Shown one piece after another: positions 2,918 through 59,457 of a stretch of 64,000 nt of DNA. Position numbers and translations under genes: made by a program. The notes under the pieces were generated by a model, which worked only from the letters and a program-made list of their open reading frames with translations, did not search any database and was not told the origin of the DNA. Within the stretch, counting starts at the first letter, position 1. Each line of letters begins with the position of its first letter. Source of the stretch: PVC group bacterium (GTDB lineage: Bacteria > Omnitrophota > Gorgyraeia > B26-G9); contig JAAEQR010000195.1 in the NCBI GenBank assembly GCA_024231215.1, positions 226,246 through 290,245 on the forward strand. The letters are read 5' to 3'.

Positions 2918-4102
2918 ATGGCAATAGAAGTAATTCAACAAAAATGTGTCGGATGTGCGCTGTGTTTAAAGAGTTGTCCTTTTGCCGCGATTGAGATGGT
3001 TAATAAAGTCGCAGTGATTAAGGACAATTGCGTTGCTTGCGGTGCTTGTATTGAAAGTTGTAAGTTCGATGCAATTATTTTAAGAAAGCATGACGAAGGT
3101 GTTTTGCCGGAAGAAGAGTATGCTGATGTATGGGTATTCGGGGAACAGAAAAAAAGTGTTATCCAGTCGGTAGTTTATGAGCTTTTGGGCGAGGGAAAAA
3201 AACTGGCTCAGAAAAGAGGCCAAAAACTAGCGGTGGTTTTATTAGGAGATAAGGGGATTGAAAAACAAGCCCAGAAACTTATTCAACGCGGTGCAGATAA
3301 AGTTTATGTGGTTGAATCTCCGGAGTTGAAAAATTATCAGGATGAAACTTATACCTGCGTGCTTACAAAGTTGATTAAAGATTATAAGCCGGAGATTGTT
3401 TTAACCGGGGCAACAAGTATTGGCCGTTCATTGATTCCGCGTGTAGCTGTAAATTTAAAAACCGGACTTACCGCAGATTGCACAGGCCTTGATATTGACG
3501 AAGAAAAAGGCTTACTGCTTCAGACACGTCCTGCTTTTGGCGGTAATATTATGGCGACAATTATTTGCCCGCATCGTCGTCCTCAAATGGCAACGGTACG
3601 GCATAAAGTAATGAAAGAAGCCCAGATCGATTTGAAGTATAAGGGTGAAATTATAAAAATAGATGCTAAGGATTTTTGTTTAAGTGCTTGCGCTAAACTG
3701 ATTGATATTATTGAAGCAATTGAAGAGACGATCAACCTTACTGAAGCGGACATTATTGTTTCGGGGGGACGTGGTATTGGAAATCCTGAAAATTTTAAAC
3801 TTATTGAGGAATTCGCCAAAACTATTGGTGCGGCAGTTGGTGCATCTCGTGCTACTGTAGATGCCGGATGGATTCCTTATTCTCATCAAGTCGGACAGAC
3901 CGGGAAAACTGTATGTCCGAAAATCTATTTTGCCTGTGGTATATCCGGCCAAATTCAGCATTTAGTCGGCATGCAGTCTGCAGATATTATTATCGCAATT
4001 AACAAAGACCCCGATGCTCCAATCTTTAAAATTGCCACCTATGGCATAGTCGGAGATATTTTTGAAGTGCTTCCAGCCTTAATTAAAAAATTCAAAAAGT
4101 AA
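2918..4102 (+). CDS. etfA: electron transfer flavoprotein alpha subunit with an N-terminal 2x[4Fe-4S] ferredoxin domain
   Basis: Two CxxCxxCxxxCP motifs lie in the first 60 aa. The EtfA FAD-binding C-terminal half follows. Confidence 0.9.
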   Translation: MAIEVIQQKCVGCALCLKSCPFAAIEMVNKVAVIKDNCVACGACIESCKFDAIILRKHDEGVLPEEEYADVWVFGEQKKSVIQSVVYELLGEGKKLAQKRGQKLAVVLLGDKGIEKQAQKLIQRGADKVYVVESPELKNYQDETYTCVLTKLIKDYKPEIVLTGATSIGRSLIPRVAVNLKTGLTADCTGLDIDEEKGLLLQTRPAFGGNIMATIICPHRRPQMATVRHKVMKEAQIDLKYKGEIIKIDAKDFCLSACAKLIDIIEAIEETINLTEADIIVSGGRGIGNPENFKLIEEFAKTIGAAVGASRATVDAGWIPYSHQVGQTGKTVCPKIYFACGISGQIQHLVGMQSADIIIAINKDPDAPIFKIATYGIVGDIFEVLPALIKKFKK

Positions 4103-4302
4103 TTTTTATCAAGTTTTAATACACTACATCTTGTGTTTTTTGGTGAAAAATCAAGTTTTTTACCAAATATCTTGCATTATAAAAAAAAGTTTGATATACT
4201 TCAATTAAGAAATAGTATATATAAATATAATAACAAATAGTAGTAACAAACATGTCCAACAGACAAGGGAATGTCTCTTCTCTTTTATTATAAGGATATA
4301 AA

Positions 4303-7300
4303 ATGTATTTTAAAAAGTTAGAACTTTATGGTTTTAAATCTTTTGTAGATAAAACCACCCTTCTTTTTGAGCCTGGAGTAACTGCAATTGTTGGTCCTAA
4401 TGGTACCGGTAAAAGTAATATTTCCGATGCAATAAAATGGGTTTTGGGCGAACAAAGTGTAAAATCCATGCGCGGCAGTAAAATGGAAGATGTTATTTTT
4501 AACGGTACAGAGTTGCGTCCGCCGGTAAATATGGCTGAAGTTTCACTTACGCTGTCTAATGAAGGAAGACACCTGCCTATAGATTACGATGAGATCAGGA
4601 TTACCCGAAGGCTTTATCGTTCCGGTGAAAGTGAATATCTTCTGAATAAAACTCCGGTAAGATTAAGAGACATTAATGAGCTTTTAATGGGGACAGGGAT
4701 TGGGACTGAATCTTATTCTCTTTTAGAACAGGGCCGAATAGACTCGATAATAAGTTCTAAGCCGGAAGATCGCCGCATTATTTTTGAAGAAGCAAGCGGG
4801 ATTACTAAATTCAAAAAGAAAAAAAATGAAGCTATGCGTAAGCTGCAGCAGACAGAAGAGAATTTGCTGCGCGTTAATGATATTGTAGTTGAAGTTAACA
4901 GGCAATTAAATTCCATCCAAAGACAGGTGAATAAAGCCAGGCGTTACCAAGAACATTTCCAAGAGCTTAAAAACCTGGATACACAGTATACCTACCGTGA
5001 ATATAATATTTTAAAATCCGAGCAGGATCAGTTCCTGGGAGAAGAGAATCAATGTCGTGGTTCTCAGGAGCAGATAGAAAATGAACTGGTAAGCATTTCG
5101 CAGCTTTTTGAAGATGTGAAGAATACGCTTACTCAGGTAGAGAATGATTATAAAGATCTGACTAATAAGGTCATGATTGCCGAGACACAGATTGAAAAAA
5201 ATACTGATCGTGTGAACTTAAATAAAGAGCGTATTGATGAGTTTACTCAGAGAGTAAACGATGCAGTAATAGATATTGGAAATACAAATAAAAAGATAGA
5301 AGAAGTAGAGCAGCAGCGCACTCTTCTTAATGAACGCATTGTTTCTTTTCAGGAAGAAAAGCATATTAAGGAAAATCAATTAAACCTGAAGAAAACAAGT
5401 CTTGAAGAGATTGAAAACCAGATTAGAGAAGCTAAGGATACCATTGCTCTGGCTAAAGAGAAAGCTGTAAATCTTTTATCTGAACATGCCCAGCTGAAAA
5501 ATAATCTCGCAAAACTTTCTGCTAACATTCATAACGCAAATGCGCGTCTGACTAGATTGCGTCAGGAAAAAAGCAAGACAGAAGAAGAATTTAATGAGAT
5601 AAATACATCTTTAGAGGGAAAAATAAATGAGCTCAATCAGCTGAAGGGGCGGGTTGATGATGAAGAAAAGAAAGAATCATCGTTACGTTCTTCTCAGGAA
5701 TTACTTGCCGGAGGCATAAAAAATCTGGAAGAAGAAATTCAGAAGTCTAAAGAGGGATTAATTGCTAAACAATCACAGCTTATTGTTCTTGAAGATTTAA
5801 GCAAAACTTACGAAGGGTTTTCTAACGCGGTAAAGGCATTGATGCCTCAAAAAGAAGAATTCCCCGAACAGTTTGAAGGGGTGCATGATGTCTTAGTGAA
5901 CTTGATCGAGGTCAGTTCCGGATATGAAATGTGCGTGGAAAACGCATTAACTGATTATTTGCAGGCTGTGGTGGTAGAAGATAGTCAGGCAATGTTGCGT
6001 TTGCGGGATTTTCTTGATTCTCAGAATATCGGCAGGGTGCGAATTATTGCTCTGGATACTATTCCGGTGGATTTAACTTCTCAGGTTTCTGGTGATGATT
6101 TACAAGCAATAACAAATTTTGTTAATTGTGAGGATAAATATAAAGGCTTAATGGCTTATCTTTTGAGGAATACGTTTCTAGTTTCTAAAGATAAGATCGA
6201 GACTGTCTCAGGAGAAAATTTTACAGCAACCCCAGAGTTGGTAGAATTTACTTATCGTGGTTTTAATTTGAATAGTGTTGAGATAATCGGTGATTTTAAT
6301 AATTGGCAGCCGTCTTCTGATACAACATTGGAACTTACCGATCCGGGGATATGGACGCGAAAGGTTTTTTTAAGCCCGGGGCATTATCGTTATAAATTTA
6401 TTGTTGATGGACAATGGATAACTGATCCGGAAAATAATAATATAGAGACAGATATTATCGGTAATTCAAATTCTATTTTAGAAATAACAGAAGCCGTAGA
6501 GAAAAAAGAAATAAAGTCGAATATATTTGATCAATTAGATGTCTCAACGCAGTTGGTAACAACCGAAGGTGAAATTTATACCCGGACTGAACTTGTAACC
6601 AAACCGACAAATGAACACAGCCTTGGTTTAATTTCTCAAAAGGCCCAGATGAGGCAACTAAAGGAAGATTGTATATATATTGATCAAAGAATTGAAGAGC
6701 TGGCGAATAAGGAAGCTTTAGAAAGTGAACAGCTGGAGAAAGTAGAAGCAGAACTGTCTCAGTTAACTGAAATATTGCATCATGAGAAAGTTATTTTTGC
6801 AAATAAAGACTCAGAAAGAGTGAGTATTGAATCTGCAAAAAAGAAACTGGATGATGAGTTATCCGTGGTTAATCTAGAAATAGAAGAAACAACTCTGGAT
6901 CTAAACGAATTAGTTGAAAAAGAAAAACAAAGCAAAGAATCCCTAGAAGCAGTTGAACAGCAGATTGCTCAGAATGAGCAGGAGATGAATTGTTCTCAGG
7001 ATCTAATATCTGATAAGACTCGGGAACGGGAAGATTTGCTGGTGGTTATTGCAGAGAAGAAAACGGAATTTTCTTTAGTTAATGAACAAGAGGCATCATT
7101 GAATCAGAACATGATCATGCTAACTGAAAATTATGACCAGATGCGTAATAACGTAGAAGAGCTGACCCGGCAGAAAGAAGAATCAACCCGACGGATCGGG
7201 GAACTGTCTGAGCAGGTAGTTAATTTAGAGCAGAATACAACGGTGCTGGGCGAAGAAAAACAGCAAATTGACACACAACTAGAACAGACAACGATGCAGC

Positions 7301-8245: not shown

Positions 8246-9430
8246 TTATTCTAATTCTTTACTAAACATGCATACTCTGTTGCGGCCGGTGTTTTTAGCT
8301 GCGTAAAGCGCTTTATCTGCGCAGGCAATGAGGGAGTTTTTTTCCTGAGCGTCTTGGGGAAAGCTGGCTACGCCGATACTTATACCTATCTTTCTTTTTG
8401 TTTTTGTCTTGGGATCATAGAAATATGTTGCAGATACGGTTTTTCTTATTCTCTCAGCTGAAGAGTAGGCTTTTTCTTTAAAAGTTTCAGGGAGAATAAT
8501 TGCGAATTCTTCTCCTCCGTAGCGGGCGACAAGATCAACCTCGCGGCATGATTTTCTTAATATCCCAGCTAATTCCTGCAGGAGTTTATCCCCGGTAAGA
8601 TGCCCGAAATTATCATTAAAGCTTTTAAAAAAATCAAGATCTGCCATAAGCAGACTTACATGCCGGTTAAAGCGGGCGGCTCTTTTAATTTCTTCTTTTA
8701 ATTGATGCTGAAAATATCCATAATTCCAGAGATTAGTTAGTCGGTCCGTATTAGATAGAACTAATGTTCGTTCAAATTCCTGCGAGTTTTCGATCGCCAA
8801 TCCAGCTTGATTGGCAAACATGTTCAGTTTCCAGATATCTTCTTTAGTGATCGTTTTCTTTGAATAGAAATTATCAACTAACATTACTCCGACTACACGA
8901 TCTTTTGCTAGTAACGGTACGGTAACAAAATAATTCATATTGAAAAGAGATACTACCAGGTCATTGCTTTTTATTGTTTTTTTTGTTTTTGAGTCAATTA
9001 TATTAAAAGGATGGCGTTTTTTTACGGTTTGAGATAGAATCCCAGTTGATGTTTCCAGGGGGAGTTGAATCTTTGTTACCAGATTATTAAGATGTGAGTC
9101 AGGACGGCGGCCGAATTCTTCGTAGGCACTAACCAGTTCATCCAGGGTTGTTTGTTCTTTCTCCAAGTGCTTCCAGATGCTATGCGCATCTTCTCCTGAA
9201 TCCGGGCCGATACCCATGCGTCCTTCCAGGGTATTGTTTGTTTCATTTACCAGAAATACCATAGCTCGGTTAAACCCAAGGCCTTCATGCGCAGTAACGC
9301 TGGTAAGAATGATGTAAAGGATTTCATCCAATCTCAATGTAGAACGCATGGCATTGCCGATCTCATATAGCATAAGGAGCTCGGATTGATGTTTTTGGAT
9401 AGTTTTCGGGATATTTTTCTTATTAAGCAT
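8246..9430 (-). CDS. GAF domain-containing diguanylate cyclase (GGDEF)
   Basis: C-terminal GGDEF domain with an intact RYGGEEF motif and an N-terminal GAF-like domain. Confidence 0.85.
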   Translation of the reverse strand: MLNKKNIPKTIQKHQSELLMLYEIGNAMRSTLRLDEILYIILTSVTAHEGLGFNRAMVFLVNETNNTLEGRMGIGPDSGEDAHSIWKHLEKEQTTLDELVSAYEEFGRRPDSHLNNLVTKIQLPLETSTGILSQTVKKRHPFNIIDSKTKKTIKSNDLVVSLFNMNYFVTVPLLAKDRVVGVMLVDNFYSKKTITKEDIWKLNMFANQAGLAIENSQEFERTLVLSNTDRLTNLWNYGYFQHQLKEEIKRAARFNRHVSLLMADLDFFKSFNDNFGHLTGDKLLQELAGILRKSCREVDLVARYGGEEFAIILPETFKEKAYSSAERIRKTVSATYFYDPKTKTKRKIGISIGVASFPQDAQEKNSLIACADKALYAAKNTGRNRVCMFSKELE

Positions 9431-20816: not shown

Positions 20817-20891
20817 TGCCCCGTGGTGTAATTGGCAACACGAATGATTCTGGTTCATTTATCCATGGTTCGAGTCCATGCGGGGCAGCCA
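20817..20891 (+). tRNA. tRNA-Gln (anticodon CUG) with U1:A72 and G73, CCA encoded
   Basis: TGCCCCG acceptor, anticodon arm AATGA-TTCTGGT-TCATT, T arm CATGG-TTCGAGT-CCATG, 3' CGGGGCA-G-CCA. Confidence 0.85.
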
Positions 20892-20940: not shown

Positions 20941-21134
20941 ACTATTGCCCCGCATGGACTCGAACAAAGGGGAGTGGGGAGATTGTCCCCACTCTTTCGG
21001 GGTAACAGCGAACGTAGTGAGCGCCATAGGGGCAGAGCCCCTTTGGGGAACGAGACCGGTAGTCCCGCTGTAAGCGGGAACGGAGCTGTACAGAGTACAG
21101 CGCAGTGTCGAGAGACGTGAGATGTCCATGCGGG
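20941..21134. other. GC-rich, highly structured segment of unknown function, bracketed by repeats of the tRNA-Gln 3' end
   Basis: A run of local hairpins (GAGTGGGGA/TCCCCACTC, GGGG-CAGAG-CCCC, CCCGC-TGTAA-GCGGG, GCTGTA/TACAGC) in a segment of about 58% GC, against a roughly 38% GC background. A 20-nt inverted copy of the tRNA 3' end lies at 20941-20960, and an 11-nt direct copy at 21124-21134. Confidence 0.3.
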
Positions 21135-21250
21135 TGTTTATCTCATAACCCCTTGCATTTCCCCCACTAAAGAGTTAAAATTAGGTGCGTTGTTCTATTT
21201 AACAATGTTTTGGAAGTAGCTAAACTCAAACGTTATACGAAAGGAATCTT

Positions 21251-29905: not shown

Positions 29906-29953
29906 ATAAAAACCCCTTTGTGGTAATTGTATGCCGCAAGGGGGTTTTTTATT
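29906..29953. terminator. bidirectional stem-loop terminator between convergent genes
   Basis: AAAACCCCTTTG...CAAGGGGGTTTTTT. Confidence 0.6.
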
Positions 29954-35233: not shown

Positions 35234-35247
35234 TAGTCGGGCTATGC

Positions 35248-35281
35248 AAGGGGGCAGTTTATGCTGCCCCCTTGTTTTTTT
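35248..35281 (+). terminator. rho-independent terminator
   Basis: GGGGGCAG-TTTATG-CTGCCCCC followed by TTGTTTTTTT. Confidence 0.75.
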
Positions 35282-35343: not shown

Positions 35344-36531
35344 ATGCAAAAACAAATAGTTTATCTCGATAATAACGCAACTACGCCGCTTCATCCGGAA
35401 GTGTGTAAAGCGCTGAATGAGGCGATGGAATTCTATGGCAATCCATCCAGTTTACATGCTTTGGGTAGAATGGCACGACAGAGAGTTGAGCAGGCCAGAG
35501 AAAATATCGCTGCGTTTATCGGGGCGGATAAAGATGAAGTTATATTTGTCGGCAGCGGTTCTGAGGCCAACAATACGGTATTATCTATATTTACTTGTCC
35601 TTCACGGAATTGTGCCTGTGCGCCGAATAAACATATAGGGATTATAACTACAACTATAGAGCATCCTTGTGTTATGGAAACTTCAAGATGTTTGTCAGAC
35701 CGTGGATTAGGAGTTTCATATCTTGATGTTGATAAGGATGGAAAAGTTGATGTTAATCAATTAGAAGAGCAGCTTGCTAAAAAGGCTGGATTGGTATCGA
35801 TCATGATGGCTAACAATGAGATTGGCACTGTGCAGGATATTAAAAAGCTTGCGGAAATTGTGCATAAACATGGAGCATTATTTCATACAGATGCAGTTCA
35901 GGCAGTTGGTAAGTTCCCGATAAATGTGCGAGAATTGGGAGTTGATTTTTTGACTCTTTCCGGGCATAAAATATATGGTCCTAAAGGTATTGGGGCATTG
36001 TATGTTAAAAAGGGCGTGCACTTTTGTCCTCTAATCAGGGGCGGTCATCAGGAGTACGGCCGTAGGGCTGGTACGGAAAATACTTTGGGAATCATTGGCT
36101 TAGAAAAGGCCATTCAAATGCGTGCTCAGGAAATGGAGCAGGAAGAAAAGCGTTTGTTTGAGTTCAAAGCTATTTTGAAAAAAGGTATTGAGGAGCAAAT
36201 CCCGGACATTAGATTTAACGGGCATCCTGAAGATTGCTTAGCGGGAACTCTAAATGTATCTTTTAACGGGGCTGAAGGCGAAGCTATTTTATTGTATTTA
36301 GATTTAGAGGGGGTTGCAGTCTCGACAGGATCTGCATGTGCGTCTGGTTCGCTTGATCCGTCACATGTATTGTTAGCAACCGGACTTGACGCAGAGAGAG
36401 CTCATGGGTCTATTAGAATTAGTATGGGGCGTCAGACGACAAAAGAAGAAATTGATTATTTATTAGAAGTGCTGCCGAGAGTTATAAAGAAAATAAGAGA
36501 AATGTCTACAGCTTACAATAAGGTTAAATAA
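35344..36531 (+). CDS. nifS: cysteine desulfurase (NifS/IscS type)
   Basis: Class V aminotransferase fold with the PLP lysine in SGHKIYGPKG and the active-site Cys loop STGSACASGS. An RBS, AAGGAG, precedes it. Confidence 0.9.
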   Translation: MQKQIVYLDNNATTPLHPEVCKALNEAMEFYGNPSSLHALGRMARQRVEQARENIAAFIGADKDEVIFVGSGSEANNTVLSIFTCPSRNCACAPNKHIGIITTTIEHPCVMETSRCLSDRGLGVSYLDVDKDGKVDVNQLEEQLAKKAGLVSIMMANNEIGTVQDIKKLAEIVHKHGALFHTDAVQAVGKFPINVRELGVDFLTLSGHKIYGPKGIGALYVKKGVHFCPLIRGGHQEYGRRAGTENTLGIIGLEKAIQMRAQEMEQEEKRLFEFKAILKKGIEEQIPDIRFNGHPEDCLAGTLNVSFNGAEGEAILLYLDLEGVAVSTGSACASGSLDPSHVLLATGLDAERAHGSIRISMGRQTTKEEIDYLLEVLPRVIKKIREMSTAYNKVK

Positions 36532-37127
36532 TGGATTGGGCATATACAGATAAAGTTAAAGAGCATTTTACAGATCCGCATAATATCTTACGTGACGGAG
36601 AAGATTTTCCTTCAGATGGCAAGGGCAAAGTAGGCAATGTCAAATGCGGGGATGAGATGATGTTCCTTATCCAGGTGGATAAAGAAAAGAAAACAATCAA
36701 AGACTGTCGCTGGAAGACTTATGGTTGTGCTAGTGCGATTGCCAGTACTTCGATGCTCTCTGATATGATTAAAGGCATGGAACTGGAAAAGGCTTATCAG
36801 ATAACACCGAAGGAGATTATGCAGCAATTAGGAGGTCTTCCGGAGCATAAGGTGCATTGCTCAGTGCTGGGAGATAAAGCCTTGCGTGCGGCGATTGATG
36901 ATTATTATCAGAACAGCGGGCAGGAAGATAAAATAGAAAAAGAAGAGGCAAAGATCATTTGCCAATGTATGAATGTTACCGATCATGAAATAGAGCATGC
37001 GGTTTTAGAAGGCGCGCGTACATATTATGAGCTCCAGGAAAGAACCAAGCTGGGGACTGTGTGCGGCCAATGCAAAGATGATGCCGAGCGCCTGCTCTCC
37101 GAATATATCCAAAAACACTATTCTTAA
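36531..37127 (+). CDS. nifU: NifU-like Fe-S cluster scaffold (IscU-type N-domain plus C-terminal BFD-like [2Fe-2S] domain)
   Basis: Scaffold cysteines in GKVGNVKCGD ... YGCASAIAS, and C-terminal CQC...CGQC. Confidence 0.85.
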   Translation: MDWAYTDKVKEHFTDPHNILRDGEDFPSDGKGKVGNVKCGDEMMFLIQVDKEKKTIKDCRWKTYGCASAIASTSMLSDMIKGMELEKAYQITPKEIMQQLGGLPEHKVHCSVLGDKALRAAIDDYYQNSGQEDKIEKEEAKIICQCMNVTDHEIEHAVLEGARTYYELQERTKLGTVCGQCKDDAERLLSEYIQKHYS

Positions 37128-37186: not shown

Positions 37187-37313
37187 AGTGCAAAAATTTT
37201 CTTTGAGTGGCGCTTTGAGCCGCGATTTTTACAAGGATGTGAAAATAGGCGAGACGCGCGGCCGCAAGGCACGATGCCGTAGCGGGCTTAGCGCAAAGAC
37301 GTGTTTTTGCACT
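37187..37313 (+). ncRNA. copy 2 of the conserved structured intergenic element (candidate small RNA) between nifU and the acyl ligase gene
   Basis: The core is nearly identical to 19225-19353. The closing stem is AGTGCAAAAA / TTTTTGCACT, whose sequence differs from copy 1 while preserving the pairing. Confidence 0.5.
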
Positions 37314-37379: not shown

Positions 37380-40103
37380 ATGACTAAAGAAAAATTATAT
37401 ACTCTGCCTGAGAAACTGCGTCAAGTTTGCGAAGAGTCTTCCGATGCAGTAGTTGCACACATAAAAGAGGGATCAGCTTATCGTGAAATTACTTATAAAG
37501 AGTTTTATGATACGGCGCAGTCAATTGCAGCTGCTTTAATTAGTAAAGATTTTAAAAAAGGGGATAGGGCGGCAATTGTTTTAGAAAATTGCCCGGAATG
37601 GGGCATGGTTTATTTTGGGATTATGCTTGCCGGCGGGGTTGCGGTTCCGGTTGATTCTCAGAGTTCATTTGATGATCTGGATTATTTTTTGAGGCATTCA
37701 AGTGCAAAAATAGTTTTTACAAATGCTAAAGCAATTCCTGTATTTACCGAACTCGCCAAAAATATTGATTCCCTGAAAAATACTGTTGTCGTCGAAGAAA
37801 TCAGATCAAATTTTATATCTAAAGGTTTTGATACACAATATGATCTGCCTCAGGTAGTCACAGATGATACAGCTTCAATTTTATATACCTCAGGTACCAC
37901 GGGCCGGCCAAAAGGGGTGATGCTTACCCACGGTAATTTCTATGCTAATTTTTTGAGTATTAAAAAATTGGGTGTTGTCTCTGACAGGGATACTGTACTT
38001 TCAATATTACCTATGCATCATGCATTTCCATTTACAGTAAGTCTGATTATTCCTCTTTTTATTCAAGGTAAAATAACGTATGTTTCCAGTCTTAAAAGTG
38101 AAGAGCTTTTGCAGGCGATGAGAGATACCGGAGTTACTGTGTTTGTCGCTGTTCCACAGCTAATGTATATGTTCTATAAACATATTTATGAGGAGATGAA
38201 AAAGCTGCCTTGGCTGTTGGGAGCTCTTATTTACATTCTTAGGGAAATATTATGGCAGGTTCGCAGGATAAGCGGAATTAATTTGAGTAAAATATTATTT
38301 TCTAAAGTGCATCATGCTTTTGGGAAAAGTTTTAGATTTTTTGCCTGCGGCGGCGCAAAGTTAAACGAAGAAGCCGGTCTTTTTCTCTCGAAAATTGGAT
38401 TTACAGTTCTTGAAGGTTATGGGCTTACCGAGACGGCTCCGATAGTTACGCTTAATTCGTTGAAAAGTCTAAAAATTGGTTCTCCGGGCATGGTAATCCC
38501 GGATGTTGAATTAAAAATATTAAGTCCTGATATAGATGGCATTGGCGGAGTGGCGATTAAAGGTCCTAATATTATGAAGGGATATTATAATAACAAAGAA
38601 GAAACATTAGTTGTTCTTAATAAGGGATGGTTTTATTCCGGAGATTTGGGGTATATCGATAAAAGAGGATATCTTCATCTTACCGGCAGAGAGAAGGAAT
38701 TAATTATTTTAAGTTCCGGGAAGAATATTTCTCCGGAAGAGGTTGAAGCTCATTATTCGGAAACGCCGTTTATTAAAGAGATATGCGTACTTGCTGTGGG
38801 AGGAAAGGAAAAGACAGAGGAAAAACTCATGGCAGTTGTTGTGCCGGATATGGATTATTATCGCCGAATTGGTGAAGTAAACATTTATGCTAAGATTAAA
38901 TGGGAGCTGGAAAATTTCTCTAAAACTTATGCTTCTTATAAAAGAATAATGGGATTTATTATTGCCAAGGAAGAGTTTTCGAGAACTCGTTTAGGTAAAC
39001 TAAAGCGTTTTGAAATTCGGGATAAATATATGGATGAACTTCTGGGCTTGGGAAAGAAGAGAGCCGAAGGAGATATTGTGCATAAGGATGCCGATCTTAA
39101 AATACTGGCATCTTCTGCCGGCAAAAAAATAATGAAAGCCTTGGAAGAAGAATTGAACTTAGATCGTCAAATTCAATTGGATGATAACTTGGAGATTGAT
39201 CTGGGACTTGATTCTTTGGGCAGGGTTGAGCATATGTCGGCTCTGGAGAAATTTCTAAATGTAAGTATCCCGGACGAGGCAATGGATAGTATTTTTACTG
39301 TGAGGGAATTAATCCTGACGATTGAAAAACTAATGTTGGAAAAAGGGATAAAGGCAGAGAGCATTCCATCTAAGAGGACAGAAGCTGCTTTATGGAGCGA
39401 TATTTTAAAAAGTGATCCTTCAGAGGATGTTGTGGGCAAGATCGATTTATCTCCTAATCGTTTAACTGAGAGTGGAATGATCGTTATTTGTAGCATTTGG
39501 AATTTATTGTTCAGAGTGATCTGGAGGCTTAAAATTAGAGGTATAGAAAATTTGTCCCGGAATGAAAGCGTTATTCTTTGTCCTAATCACGGGAGTTATC
39601 TGGATGGATTTTTAATTGCTGCGGCTATGCCGGTGTGGTTGAAAAGACAGACTTTTTTTCTCGGATATAGAGGGTATTTCGAAACACGATTCCTGAAACA
39701 TATTATAAGACATATTAAAATAATTCCGATTGATCCGGGAGCAAGATTAATGGATGCTATGCGGGCTTGTGCGTATATTTTAAAAAAAGGAAAATCCGCT
39801 TGTCTTTTTTCCGAAGGACAGAGATCTCCTGACGGGGAGGTGCAGGAATTTAAAAAAGGCATTGGTATTTTGGCAAAAGAAATGAATGTTCGGCTTGTTC
39901 CGGTATATATAGATGGATCCTATGAGTCCTGGCCCCGGACAAGTTCTATGCCTAAACCTTATCCGATTACGATACAATTTGGTCTTCCTCAGGAAGCAGC
40001 GGATCTTAAAAAACAGGGAATTAAATTAGGAGCTAAGGATGATTACCAGGCAATTGCGATGGCGATAAGAGAGCATGTTATCACATTGAAGAAAAAGGTA
40101 TAG
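37380..40103 (+). CDS. tri-domain long-chain fatty acid AMP-ligase - acyl carrier (PP-binding) domain - lysophospholipid acyltransferase (Aas-like)
   Basis: AMP-binding motifs (YTSGTTGRPKGV, GYGLTE); a carrier domain with DLGLDSLGRVE; a PlsC motif NHGSYLDGF and a downstream FSEGQRS. Confidence 0.85.
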   Translation: MTKEKLYTLPEKLRQVCEESSDAVVAHIKEGSAYREITYKEFYDTAQSIAAALISKDFKKGDRAAIVLENCPEWGMVYFGIMLAGGVAVPVDSQSSFDDLDYFLRHSSAKIVFTNAKAIPVFTELAKNIDSLKNTVVVEEIRSNFISKGFDTQYDLPQVVTDDTASILYTSGTTGRPKGVMLTHGNFYANFLSIKKLGVVSDRDTVLSILPMHHAFPFTVSLIIPLFIQGKITYVSSLKSEELLQAMRDTGVTVFVAVPQLMYMFYKHIYEEMKKLPWLLGALIYILREILWQVRRISGINLSKILFSKVHHAFGKSFRFFACGGAKLNEEAGLFLSKIGFTVLEGYGLTETAPIVTLNSLKSLKIGSPGMVIPDVELKILSPDIDGIGGVAIKGPNIMKGYYNNKEETLVVLNKGWFYSGDLGYIDKRGYLHLTGREKELIILSSGKNISPEEVEAHYSETPFIKEICVLAVGGKEKTEEKLMAVVVPDMDYYRRIGEVNIYAKIKWELENFSKTYASYKRIMGFIIAKEEFSRTRLGKLKRFEIRDKYMDELLGLGKKRAEGDIVHKDADLKILASSAGKKIMKALEEELNLDRQIQLDDNLEIDLGLDSLGRVEHMSALEKFLNVSIPDEAMDSIFTVRELILTIEKLMLEKGIKAESIPSKRTEAALWSDILKSDPSEDVVGKIDLSPNRLTESGMIVICSIWNLLFRVIWRLKIRGIENLSRNESVILCPNHGSYLDGFLIAAAMPVWLKRQTFFLGYRGYFETRFLKHIIRHIKIIPIDPGARLMDAMRACAYILKKGKSACLFSEGQRSPDGEVQEFKKGIGILAKEMNVRLVPVYIDGSYESWPRTSSMPKPYPITIQFGLPQEAADLKKQGIKLGAKDDYQAIAMAIREHVITLKKKV

Positions 40104-40113
40104 TAGATATTTT

Positions 40114-40710
40114 TTATACCTGGATGCCGACAATCTTATTAAGAGTTTTTATTTCTTTTCCCTGGATGAGTAAAGGTTCGCAAGATTCCGACATTAAAAT
40201 ACTTTGTAGGGTTATTGTTCTTTTGTTTTGAAAGTATCTTCGGAAATGATATTCTCCGTTTGCCAGGATCGCAAAAACAAAATCGCTGTTATTAATAGGT
40301 GCTTTTTCACGATAAATAATTTTTTGTCCTTTAAGAACAAATGGTGCCAGGGAATTGGTGGTAATTTTTATTGCTTTGCAGTCTTTGAAATTAATATACT
40401 CGCCTGATTCTAACGGTTTTAGTTCGAAATTATTTTCATTATTGGATGTTACTTCCCAGATCACTGGTATATTGGAAGCTCTTTTGTATTCTGCTTCTGC
40501 TTCTTTGACCGGAGGTATTCCGCCGAACAGTTCTGCTTCGGTAATATCGAAAAATTTGGCAAGTTTTTTGCGTTGTTTAGTGTTTGGTTCTTGCCTGCCT
40601 GATTCCCAATGCGATACCGTGCTTTGGTTGACTAAAAGCGCATAAGCAAGTGCTTTTTGCTGGATTTTTCTTTCTTTTCTCAGGGATTTTATCGTGTCGC
40701 GTAATTCCAT
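40114..40710 (-). CDS. XRE-family HTH repressor with a C-terminal S24 (LexA/cI-like) peptidase domain
   Basis: N-terminal HTH (QKALAYALLVNQSTVSHWESG) and a C-terminal S24-like beta domain. Confidence 0.7.
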   Translation of the reverse strand: MELRDTIKSLRKERKIQQKALAYALLVNQSTVSHWESGRQEPNTKQRKKLAKFFDITEAELFGGIPPVKEAEAEYKRASNIPVIWEVTSNNENNFELKPLESGEYINFKDCKAIKITTNSLAPFVLKGQKIIYREKAPINNSDFVFAILANGEYHFRRYFQNKRTITLQSILMSESCEPLLIQGKEIKTLNKIVGIQV

Positions 40711-41522: not shown

Positions 41523-41723
41523 ATGGCAAAAGGTAAAGTAAAATGGTTTAGTAATAAAAAAGGATACGGTTTTATTACCACTGAATCCGGGACTGATGTA
41601 TTTGTGCATCATAACTCAGTTCAAGGTGAGGGGTTCAAGACTTTGGATGAAGGTCAGGAAGTAGAATTTGAGATTGAGCAGGGTCCAAAAGGCGAACAGG
41701 CAGTAAATGTTGTAAAGCTATAA
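41523..41723 (+). CDS. cspA: cold-shock protein (CspA family)
   Basis: 66 aa; [16 protein letters not shown] and VFVHH are the RNP1 and RNP2 motifs. Confidence 0.9.
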
Positions 41724-41844
41724 CTTAAAAAAATAAAAGCGAATCTTTATTGAGAATATGTGGTTAGTCTTATTAAAGGTTCGCTTTTTTCGTCGCTTAT
41801 GCGGCGAATTCTCCATGTTCTGTGGAGGATAATGGAACTCTCTA

Positions 41845-45618: not shown

Positions 45619-45819
45619 ATGCCGAAGGGAAAAGTAAAGTGGTTTAGTAATAAAAAGGGATATGGGTTCATCACTGCTGATTCAGGCACTGATGTATTTG
45701 TGCATCACAGCACAATCCAGGGAGATGGGTTTAAAACTTTGGATGAAGGTCAGGAAGTAGAATTTGAGGTTGAGCAGGGTCCGAAGGGTGATCAAGCTAG
45801 AAATGTAGTAAAACTCTAA
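45619..45819 (+). CDS. cspA: cold-shock protein (CspA family), paralog of 41523-41723
   Basis: About 85% identical to the other copy. A TTGACA-17-TATACT promoter lies upstream. Confidence 0.9.
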
Positions 45820-45836
45820 ACCAAAAGCTCTAAAAA

Positions 45837-45865
45837 CCCGGCTCTAAAAAGCCGGGTTTTTTTTT
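45837..45865 (+). terminator. rho-independent terminator after csp
   Basis: CCCGGCT-CTAAAAA-GCCGGG followed by T9. Confidence 0.8.
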
Positions 45866-56565: not shown

Positions 56566-56720
56566 TTGTGATAGAATGCAAAATAGCTATAAGTGGTAAG
56601 GAGGAAGAGAAAACAGAAAAAATAAAAAAGGTATATAGTTTGTTAGTTTGTGTTTTATTGGGAGAGTATTAATAGTTGTGCAACATAAGGGGATTATTAT
56701 GAGTTATAGGTTTATTGTTT

Positions 56721-56760
56721 TATACTTATAACTTACAACGTATAACTTATAACTGGAGAT
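56721..56760. promoter_or_regulatory. direct repeats of TATAACTTA upstream of hypC (candidate operator)
   Basis: CTTATAACTTACAACGTATAACTTATAACT; it shares TTATAACTTACAAC with the hypA upstream region. Confidence 0.35.
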
Positions 56761-58335: not shown

Positions 58336-59391
58336 ATGAATGATTTTGATGTAACAAATTTAACGTGTCCAATTCCGATATCCGATTATCCAAATGTGCT
58401 TTTAGCGCATGGATCCGGCGGGATTTTGATGAATCAGTTGATTGAAAAGATATTTTTAGCGGCATTTAAGAATCCGATCTTAGAACAAAAACATGATGCA
58501 TCGGTTTTAGAGCCGGGAAAAGGCAAGCTGGCAATGACCACTGACTCTTATGTCATTCATCCATTGTTTTTTCCGGGAGGAGATATTGGTTCTTTAGCAG
58601 TGCATGGGACGGTTAATGATTTAGCGATGTGTGGAGCAAAACCATTATATCTTTCTGCTGGATTTATCTTAGAAGAAGGGCTTCCTATGGATACTCTTTG
58701 GAAAGTAGTTGTATCTATGGCTCAGGCAGCTAAGAACGCAGGAGTGCAGATTGTTACCGGAGATACAAAGGTTGTAAATAAAGGTAAGGGCGATGGGATA
58801 TTTATAAATACCGCAGGTATTGGCGTAATTGAGCATGATTTAAGTATAGCTCCAGCTTCGATAAGAGAAGGCGATGCGATTATTCTAAGCGGTGATATTG
58901 CAAGACATGGTATGGCGGTTATGGCTGTACGTGAAGGGCTAGAGTTTGAAAGCATGATCACCAGTGATTCTGCGCCGGTAAACGCAATCGTAGAAAAACT
59001 TATTGCTTCCGATATAGATATACATTGTATGCGTGATCTTACACGGGGTGGTGTAGCTAGTGCTTTAGTTGAACTTGCTAAAAGTGCTAATGTCCATATT
59101 AATATTGAAGAAGAAAAAATTCCAGTGCATGAAGATGTGAGAGGGGCTTGTGAAATATTGGGATTAGATCCGATGTATGTAGCTAATGAAGGCAGGTTTG
59201 TTTGCTTTGTACCTGAGGGACAGGCTGATAAAGTGATTCAGATTATGCGGGAATACTCAGATGCAGAAGAAGTTGTTTGTATTGGCAAAGTCAGTTTGGA
59301 TAAAAAAGGACAGGTAACTCTTAAAACCAGCATTGGTACTACCCGCTATGTAGATATGCTTTCCGGAGAACAATTGCCGCGTATTTGTTAA
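58336..59391 (+). CDS. hypE: carbamoyl dehydratase HypE
   Basis: AIR synthase-related fold and a C-terminal PRIC motif. Confidence 0.9.
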
Positions 59392-59407
59392 AAATTTATA
59401 TAAAAAC

Positions 59408-59432
59408 GGGCGGACACATCGGTCCGCCCCTA
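59408..59432. terminator. bidirectional terminator between hypE and gpmA
   Basis: GGGCGGAC-ACATC-GGTCCGCCC. Confidence 0.6.
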
Positions 59433-59457
59433 CAATTTGTAAATATACAACTTTTTC

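Follow-up and report, generated by a model that had tools for sequence, protein, structure and literature searches.

A structured element of 127 nt lies at positions 37187-37313 of the 64,000-nt stretch of Omnitrophota contig JAAEQR010000195.1 analysed here (the window), in the spacer between a nifU-like gene and a gene for an acyl ligase. On balance we favour reading it as a member of a family of ~130-nt dispersed intercistronic RNA modules of the REP/BIME-ERIC-Correia type, carried by a clade of Omnitrophota; the family is previously undescribed. Such units are found by the dozen in single Omnitrophota genomes, placed between the genes of operons; they keep a covarying fold that belongs to one strand, are constrained in sequence, and turn over at orthologous spacers.

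The preliminary description of the window had called this unit the second copy of a structured element, the first one being in the spacer between dxs and gltX, and both BLAST and folding agree with it, as positions 19230-19348 and 37191-37309 are 93.3% identical over 119 nt. Copy 2 (37187-37313) is bounded by AGTGCAAAAA...TTTTTGCACT and copy 1 (19225-19353) by CATCACAAAAA...TTTTTGTGATG, and the flanking DNA of the two shows no similarity past the unit ends. A 32-mer from the core occurs exactly twice in the window, while none is expected from 100 shuffles. No third copy was found in the 64 kb by BLAST, and a covariance model (CM) built from the two window copies (R1), run with filters off over the whole window, returned only the two known copies, the remaining matches being plain hairpins.

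That the element is structured, as had been proposed, is supported by its folding and by covariation. The + strands of the copies fold with minimum free energies (MFE) of -51.3 and -52.4 kcal/mol (z = -3.7 and -5.6 against shuffles), 8-12 kcal/mol better than the - strands (-39.8 and -44.3 kcal/mol), and the MFE architecture is identical in all sub-families: a long closing helix leading into a three-way junction. Covariation was evaluated on an alignment of 40 family members with 51 pairs (A6), in which close copies dominate. There, 92.5% of cells are paired, compared with 31-49% when the partners are slid by 1-3 columns, and helices 2 and 3, in domain A, are paired in 93.9% and 97.5% of cells. 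Both sides have changed in 23 of the 51 pairs, against 9.8 +/- 1.8 in shuffles, eight of the altered pairs belonging to hairpin B (helix 4), and on none of five measures did any of 500 shuffles reach the observed value. Since close copies dominate the alignment, its cell counts are higher than the true number of independent changes; independent, by contrast, are the double changes that distinguish sub-families, among them A-U to G-C in P1, C-G to A-U in P2, GCGC/GCGC to GGAU/AUCC in P3, and AC/GU to GC/GC to GCC/GGC in P3a. The two window copies themselves differ by an A-U to G-C double change in P2 (alignment columns 21/110), and two more of their differences stay paired by wobble (C-G to U-G and U-A to U-G). 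Furthermore, the alignment holds 140 G.U cells and 21 A.C cells (83 and 21 if only minority variants are counted). Transitions in a strand-neutral duplex would give equal numbers of both, and the excess of G.U therefore makes the fold strand-specific.

In the family at large, P1 consists of an outer arm followed by C-A5-U / G-U5-G, and a small internal loop separates it from P2, which reads UCUCUUUGAGC / GCGAAAAGAYG. P2 contains tandem G.A/A.G in the L075 type (named after one of the loci, which are cited here by our own labels), where copy 1 has two A-U pairs instead. The junction carries domain A and hairpin B, and GCUUA returns from it into P2. Domain A is built of P3 (GCGC/GCGC), P3a and hairpin A, with the form AUUUUKACA-NGGA-UGUMAAAAU, while hairpin B is an 11-bp stem whose apex, GCA-CGA-UGC, is kept in 36 of 40 members. 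The unpaired junction stretches UUUSGAA, GAGAAC and GCUUAGC are invariant across the sub-families.

The outermost part of the closing stem follows a different rule. Outside the shared C-A5...U5-G, copy 1 has the arm ACATCAC/GTGATGT (seven Watson-Crick pairs and one G.U) and copy 2 has AGTGC/GCACT (five pairs), with three aligned pairs altered on both sides between them, so the proposal that the arms differ between the copies and are nevertheless complementary holds. Among 45 distinct copies, contiguous pairing past A5/U5 averages 3.89 pairs, compared with 3.11 when 3' flanks are reassigned, and 0 of 2000 shuffles reached the observed value. The three copies known outside L075-type genomes have arms of unrelated sequence with 8 (copy 1), 5 (copy 2) and 9 pairs, the last being AAUAGCGC/GCGCUAUU in L173. 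In L075-type genomes the first three arm pairs (C-G, G-C, G-C) are conserved and positions 4-5 vary, being paired in 62-69% of copies by U-A, A-U, G-U and G-C alike. In one L075-type subgroup the variable nucleotides of the 3' arm are followed by a conserved CAAACAACTCTT, and the arm therefore belongs to the repeated unit and is not only unique flank. These data speak for selection on pairing in the closing stem and for the stem as a genuine feature. Most simply, they can be read as a core held in sequence and an outer arm held only to pair, like P1 of many structured RNAs, which explains the jump from ~7% divergence in the core to arm positions that are mostly changed but paired. Alternatively, the arms of the window copies could have originated from insertion into palindromic targets.

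The family itself was traced in related DNA. Among loci around dxs in GTDB genomes of Omnitrophota (relatives with Dxs of 70-82% identity), model R1 matched L075 4920-5051 at 88 bits and, weakly, L067 4838-4969, both between lexA and dinB. A degenerate 23-mer common to the window copies and L075, AAATTYTCTTTRAGYGGCGCTTT, retrieved 46 metagenome loci, 44 of them with the element; the other two, L170 and L186, were rejected as chance 23-mer matches in G+C-rich coding DNA. R1 found 52 copies in total; with a second model built from 40 sequences (R2) the number of real copies rose to 55, among them further members of a distant sub-family, in L067, L167 (3822-3953), L178 (1304-1433) and L144 (4874-5004). 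One contig of 121 kb carries at least five copies. With ~50 further copies in relatives, the element of the window is therefore a member of a multi-copy family and not one of a private pair. In L167, a distant-type copy (3822-3953) and a main-type copy (4032-4157) follow each other on the - strand 79 nt apart, and the two sub-families therefore coexist in one genome.

Searches in wider collections were negative. Rfam (Rfam 15), searched with a 300-nt region at gathering and permissive thresholds (E<=10), returned only tRNAs and nothing above noise, and neither ARAGORN nor the Rfam tRNA model recognised a tRNA-like cloverleaf in the element. Plasmids and phages gave no match either, and blastn in distant mode found none in 5,426 E. 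coli genomes. A 25-mer of the core, searched exactly, had 0 matches in large collections of genome contigs and metagenome contigs, which may mean either that the lineage of the window is missing from them or that the sequence is masked there. In viral contigs, three core sub-strings and one 3' pattern gave 0, 40, 18 and 0 matches; the CM found no element among them, and they were dismissed as chance. The loci of the nearest Aas homologue (L001-L004) have another synteny and no element, and nothing relevant was found in the literature on Omnitrophota RNA motifs or repeats.

In regard to genomic position, every copy of the family is intergenic. Co-directional spacers hold 24 copies in sense and 7 in antisense orientation (~20 and 6 after removal of orthologous duplicates; two-sided binomial P ~0.01), convergent spacers hold five and divergent spacers one. 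Many of these spacers separate genes of one operon. MraY is followed after 29 nt by the element and after another 11 nt by MurD, and the element likewise splits fumarase alpha and beta, LarB (AIRC) and LarC, RNase PH and Ham1/RdgB, MoxR and DUF58, and an ABC ATPase (MlaF-like) and an MlaD-like protein; the lexA-dinB spacer carries a copy in both L075 and L067. Operon copies lie 11-65 nt ahead of the next start codon. The genes downstream include hemB/ALAD, era, pyrK-like, murD, larC, fumarase beta, argH, murG, tgt, ham1/rdgB, gltX, aas and dinB.

In the window, the flanking genes had been named as dxs and gltX for copy 1 and as nifU and an acyl ligase for copy 2, and Pfam agrees, adding the AMP-binding and acyltransferase domains of the latter. 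The order around copy 2 is nifS-nifU, element, and the gene for the AMP-binding/acyl carrier protein/acyltransferase polypeptide, whose homologues beyond the source's own protein are all from Omnitrophota and at most 61% identical. Copy 1 sits 35 nt ahead of an essential gene. In relatives dxs and gltX are only ~11-20 nt apart (L070, L066) and therefore co-transcribed, or they are separated by ~105 nt without the element (L067, L068, L075). Since the spacer lacks the element in L063, L066, L067, L068, L070 and L075, copy 1 is a lineage-specific occupant of an operon spacer. The same spacer is an N-run, either an assembly gap or a masked stretch, in L071 (~11930-12025), and holds other G+C-rich inserts with inverted flanking arms in L069 (~3700-3900) and L064 (~10180-10430); the hairpin of L064, GCGGTAAAATTCTCTTTGATAATTTTACCGC, has AAAATTCTCTTTGA in common with the 5' end of the element.

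Positions of the features are collected in the table below.

Table. Parts of copy 2, its neighbourhood in the window, and related modules in other Omnitrophota loci
Feature	Position	Strand	Description or support
Copy 2, whole unit (element under study)	37187..37313	+	CM R1 158.9 bits, CM R2 119.9 bits
P1, 5' strand	37187..37197	+	outer arm AGTG copy-specific, then family-conserved CAAAAAU; MFE, alifold pairs, arm statistics
P2, 5' strand	37200..37208	+	UCUUUGAGU; MFE, alifold, 40-sequence covariation
Domain A	37210..37259	+	P3 (GCGC/GCGC), P3a (GCC/GGC) and hairpin A; MFE, alifold
Hairpin A apex	37231..37240	+	ACAAGGAUGU; GGA in 4-nt loop on ACA/UGU stem
Hairpin B	37262..37285	+	CCGC-AA-GGCA-CGA-UGCC-GUA-GCGG; MFE
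P2, 3' strand	37291..37299	+	GCGCAAAGA; MFE, alifold, 40-sequence covariation
P1, 3' strand	37303..37313	+	conserved GUUUUUG, then copy-specific arm CACU; MFE, alifold, arm statistics
Copy 1, same element	19225..19353	+	in dxs-gltX spacer
nifU-like gene, upstream of copy 2	36531..37127	+	Pfam NifU_N and Fer2_BFD; stop ~60 nt before element
AMP-binding / PP-binding / acyltransferase gene (Aas-like), downstream of copy 2	37380..40103	+	Pfam; begins 67 nt past copy 2
Long-variant copies	L174 4990-5190; L162 3614-3814; L178 994-1194; L144 3159-3362; L168 1174-1374; L159 8479-8677; L176 12319-12519		~200 nt
Stand-alone ~100-nt domain	L155 ~11738; L172 ~1766-1960; L181 ~12626; L185 ~11810-11963 (-)		
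Low-complexity modules	L075 4780-4850, 11905-12005; L067 4700-4830, 4975-5130; L177 8850-8885; L156 ~6880-6915; L171 ~6740-6800		
Low-complexity modules, window	56720-56754, 4206-4250 (milder)		

Besides the short form, there is a domain-swapped variant of ~200 nt, present in seven copies, in which a domain of ~100 nt takes the place of hairpin A. This swapped-in domain, AAAUGAGAGCCUGACUUAC...GGAAUCAUU, has no Rfam match and is also found alone, forming a second structured repeat. Its reverse complement abuts, in L181 and L185, a Shine-Dalgarno (SD) sequence and an ATG (of an epimerase-like gene in L185), where, judging from the sequence, a CUCUC...GAGAG pairing could mask the SD. Spacers of these Omnitrophota also hold low-complexity modules made of degenerate short-period repeats (GATGGCTAATAGCTAATGG, CAAGACACAAGACACAAGG, TTCATAATTCATAATTC, GGGTTTAGCATTTAGGGTGTAGGG and TATAGCGTATAGCGCAGAGCG). 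These are often inverted pairs, often stand just 5' of the element, and many have AAGGA-like motifs; between orthologous modules the style is kept and the repeated word is changed.

Orthologous spacers show both the constancy of the element and its turnover. In four pairs of orthologous copies from two related populations the element is 94.7-97.7% identical, while alignable flanking coding DNA is 79.8-87.8% identical and 100 nt of spacer on either side 38-89%. The element is thus more conserved in sequence than the adjacent protein genes, which could reflect either purifying selection on the sequence or continuing homogenisation among copies. At other sites the orthologs disagree: L177 is filled (8886-9017) and its ortholog in L156 lacks the element; in a spacer common to L165 and L172 the element points in opposite directions; one locus has the short variant in L163 and the long one in L178; and between lexA and dinB stands the main type (in L075, L166 and L148), the distant type (in L067) or no element at all (in L068). 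From such polymorphisms in presence, orientation and variant we conclude that units are gained, lost or replaced. L068 was tried as an empty site for the lexA-dinB copy of L075 and given up, the whole spacer being remodelled and the insertion boundaries unreadable. The filled/empty pair L177/L156 shows no clear target duplication, its flanks being of low complexity, internally repetitive and ambiguous. Where flanks of copies are repeated, they are inverted and not direct. The 8-nt ends GGCAAAAA/TTTTTGCC are conserved in L075-type copies, only CAAAAA/TTTTTG in the window type, and further inward the ends are only loosely inverted. Neither a linked transposase nor long inverted termini were found in the sampled loci, and an all-against-all megablast of ~0.45 Mb of element-carrying loci revealed only orthologous blocks and no long multi-copy sequence that could be an autonomous IS sharing its ends with a miniature derivative of a DDE transposon (MITE). 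Among the annotated flanking genes there is no retron reverse transcriptase. Core sites of integron attC (RYYYAAC ... GTTRRRY) are likewise absent from the element, which ends in CAAAAAT...GTTTTTG and has housekeeping operons as neighbours.

The roles proposed at the outset, an independent small RNA (sRNA) gene or a structured terminator or leader, do not fit these observations, although the underlying idea of one structured element on the sense strand, most simply understood as RNA, is retained. It had been suggested that the closing stem, with a U-run at the end of each 3' arm, contains a terminator. The T-run is present, but inside the closing helix and not after a hairpin: U5 is paired to A5 within P1, and the next bases are GCACU or GUGAUG. 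An intrinsic terminator or attenuator that stops transcription from nifU or dxs would agree with the A5...U5 arrangement, which resembles bidirectional terminators (intrinsic terminators likewise have an A-tract and a U-tract around a structured segment), and with the location 29-60 nt after a stop codon. However, intrinsic terminators have an unpaired U-tract directly (0-2 nt) after a G+C-rich hairpin at the end of a transcription unit, whereas here the U-tract is paired, followed by G/C and placed mid-operon, and the helix adjoining it is A+U-rich and bulged. A terminator scan that calls canonical terminators in the window at 29908-29949, 35246-35275 and 45832-45861 does not call the closing stem. 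It did flag an internal hairpin followed by AUUUUU (37207-37223), which was rejected since it is not conserved in L075-type copies. Moreover, copies stand in obligate operons, 11-65 nt ahead of essential genes, where a promoter would not fit; a strong terminator there would be lethal or would require such a promoter, and this counts against termination. It is very unlikely that the element is a terminator, and the chance that the closing stem and its U-run stop nifU or dxs transcription seems to us very small. A family of multi-copy, trans-acting sRNA genes would account for the compact, stable and conserved ~130-nt structure, and a weak promoter-like match ends 8 nt ahead of copy 1. Yet the ~120 nt upstream of ~50 copies share almost no information and no conserved promoter-like signal, and promoter-like matches in that part of the window number 53, compared with 61.7 in shuffles; independent sRNA genes are therefore unlikely, and highly so given that no terminator follows the unit and that every fourth copy is in antisense orientation to its neighbours. 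The proposal of leader modules finds no support in the downstream genes: these are housekeeping genes without relation to each other, which rules out a leader or riboswitch specific to one pathway. A new self-cleaving or ligand-sensing RNA, that is, a ribozyme or a global riboswitch punctuating operon transcripts, would be in line with the invariant junction stretches and with a sequence constraint above that of the flanking genes, and riboswitch aptamers also have a sequence-conserved core closed by a variable but paired helix. Nevertheless, there is no match to known ribozyme or riboswitch models in Rfam, no expression platform and no common function of the downstream genes, and the copies, tens of near-identical ones per genome and some of them antisense, are unlike riboswitch paralogues. 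We regard this explanation as extremely improbable.

Two further explanations concern a protein partner and the DNA itself. The consensus selected for CsrA by systematic evolution of ligands by exponential enrichment (SELEX) is RUACARGGAUGU, with ACA and GGA invariant and GGA in a hairpin loop (PMC4347634). Hairpin A of the window copies, UUACAAGGAUGU (37229-37240), matches it at 11 of 12 positions with GGA in the loop, and the motif ACANGGATGT occurs in the window in the two element copies only. Of 40 family members, 37 retain GGA, whereas the base before it in the loop can be any of the four and forms the most variable core column. Two such sites ~40 nt apart exist in L067 and L167, where hairpin B too reads ACAGGAUGU or ACAGGAAGU; in other copies it is GCACGAUGC, one base off. 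As far as sequence can tell, this is a resemblance to a CsrA site and not a demonstration of one. The element could accordingly be a docking module for CsrA-type or other dimeric RNA-binding proteins, its GGA loops being offered by hairpin A and, in some sub-families, by hairpin B; it would place the distal cistrons of many operons under one global regulator or titrate that regulator, and the flagellar gene sets of some Omnitrophota would agree with this indirectly, as CsrA-FliW usually accompanies such sets. Hairpins of CsrB, RsmZ and the glgC and hag leaders are alike in having ACA-NGGA-UGU with a loop GGA, the SELEX optimum; RNAs of the CsrB/RsmZ type, however, have many sites, and leaders regulated by CsrA have a second site over the Shine-Dalgarno sequence within ~10-63 nt, whereas the element usually has one (hairpin B being CGA in 36/40) and lacks a promoter or terminator of its own. 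The long variant is without hairpin A, and the GGA of the domain in its place is not conserved; hairpin A is followed by the next Shine-Dalgarno sequence at a variable distance, mostly >90 nt; and no csrA turned up in the DNA that was sampled, which amounts to only part of a genome. Docking as the whole explanation is in our view quite unlikely. On the other hand, the element might be a non-autonomous single-stranded DNA mobile element of the IS200/IS605-PATE or REP/RAYT type, its DNA hairpin being recognised by a Y1/HUH transposase on the lagging-strand template and any effects in RNA being incidental. The strand-specific fold, the absence of terminal inverted repeats past ~8 nt and of target duplication, the many near-identical members, and the presence/absence, inversion and variant replacement at orthologous spacers would all be expected, and the orientation bias could track replication, since genes and copies are co-oriented. 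Against it, the sampled loci contain no transposase or long multi-copy sequence; derivatives of IS200/IS605 have separate left- and right-end hairpins and not one closed three-way junction; orthologs more conserved than flanking genes would be unusual for selfish DNA unless homogenised; and the conserved GGA loop and the rarity in divergent spacers fit a transcribed role. We consider this origin unlikely.

For the intercistronic RNA module, which we favour, the following course of events can be proposed. As the units stand in short co-directional spacers, mostly inside operons and in sense orientation, we infer from this placement that they are transcribed as part of the polycistronic mRNA, where they may have a role in stability, processing or protein binding. 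The transcribed strand would fold into the copy-specific arm, C-A5/U5-G and P2, and then into the three-way junction with hairpins A and B. Such a stable double-stranded structure, recognisable by proteins, could block 3' exonucleases, provide an RNase III-type site or recruit an RNA-binding protein, and the NGGA hairpin would point to a CsrA-like one. Transcription would run through the element unstopped, and units are gained, lost or replaced at orthologous spacers. Several points speak against such a module. Its transcription, processing and effects on stability are deduced from position and fold, and a strand-specific fold would suit single-stranded DNA equally well. The identity of orthologs could reflect gene conversion among copies instead of purifying selection. 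Roughly one copy in four runs antisense to the genes around it, which is unexpected for a purely beneficial module of sense RNA, and the sub-type of the window itself is represented by two copies only. Neither the lexA-dinB spacer nor L156/L177 offers a clean empty site or a target duplication that would define a mobile unit. Finally, tblastn with CsrA of E. coli and B. subtilis found no csrA either in the window or among the ~0.6 Mb sampled from relatives, too little DNA to be informative.

Known families of dispersed repeats provide the closest parallels. REP/BIME sequences stabilise upstream mRNA, bind proteins and are tolerated inside essential operons. Those of Enterobacteria and Pseudomonas (including REPINs) are likewise multi-copy and stem-forming, occupy short, transcribed, often intercistronic spacers and are conserved across species, and the element shares the REP-type combination of high copy number and restriction to transcribed extragenic spacers. 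REPs, however, are simple palindromes or doublets of 20-40 nt with a GTAG-type head and have RAYT as a partner, whereas the Omnitrophota element is a single closed three-way junction of 127-132 nt, with no such partner seen in the sampled loci. ERIC/IRU sequences (127 bp) are of nearly equal size, form imperfect long hairpins and occur in transcribed intergenic regions in either orientation, but they have conserved terminal inverted repeats and belong to another phylum, while the outermost arm of the element is copy-specific, its interior is branched and it has no match in the 5,426 E. coli genomes. Correia/NEMIS elements of Neisseria (~100-155 bp) are dispersed and co-transcribed, with a long stem that, like that of the element, is a possible substrate of RNase III; their 26-bp terminal inverted repeats and TA target duplication were not found here. 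The element thus behaves most like REP/BIME, ERIC and Correia sequences but fails their defining structural features, and has an architecture and modular variants of its own.

Some other features of the window were noted. Convergent to the aas-like gene behind copy 2 is a gene for a LexA/CI-like repressor (HTH_3 and Peptidase_S24; 40114-40710, - strand). The element lies between a true lexA and dinB in relatives; the parallel is probably a coincidence. The long repeat formed by 41523-41730 and 45619-45826 was considered as a relative of the element and rejected, as it consists of paralogous cold-shock-protein genes (81% identical in DNA), the second of which is followed by the canonical terminator at 45832-45861. 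The 3' half of tRNA-Gln (20863-20887) is repeated in inverted orientation at 20946-20970, 58 nt downstream of the tRNA, and is followed at 20970-21150 by a G+C-rich run of ~170 nt with several perfect hairpins and no Rfam match; together they may be the remnant of an integration site or another structured RNA. A 31-nt sequence with a GGGCGGAT...ATCCGCCC hairpin occurs in opposite orientations at 15719-15749 and 59407-59437, directly after the stops of two open reading frames of 351 aa (14665-15720 and 58336-59391), and could be a small REP-like or terminator repeat.

The Omnitrophota are nanobacteria that have not been cultured, and almost nothing is known of how they regulate their genes. Placement within essential operons, conservation above that of genes, covariation and the absence of an Rfam model make the element a candidate for a lineage-wide post-transcriptional device, and its covariance model can be used for annotating Omnitrophota genomes. 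If the family were merely selfish, it would still represent a new architecture of dispersed repeats, a closed three-way junction without inverted-repeat ends or target duplication. The conserved ACA-NGGA-UGU hairpin offers a testable link to CsrA-type regulation. A more far-reaching possibility, which we hold to be unlikely, is that such elements form a new class of RNA operon "punctuation", in which a three-way-junction RNA, constrained in sequence and employed dozens of times in a genome, is recognised by a dedicated protein (CsrA-like or an RNase) or cleaves itself. In that case, the relative expression of neighbouring cistrons would be set via one shared module, and the sub-families and swapped domains would stand for different responses.

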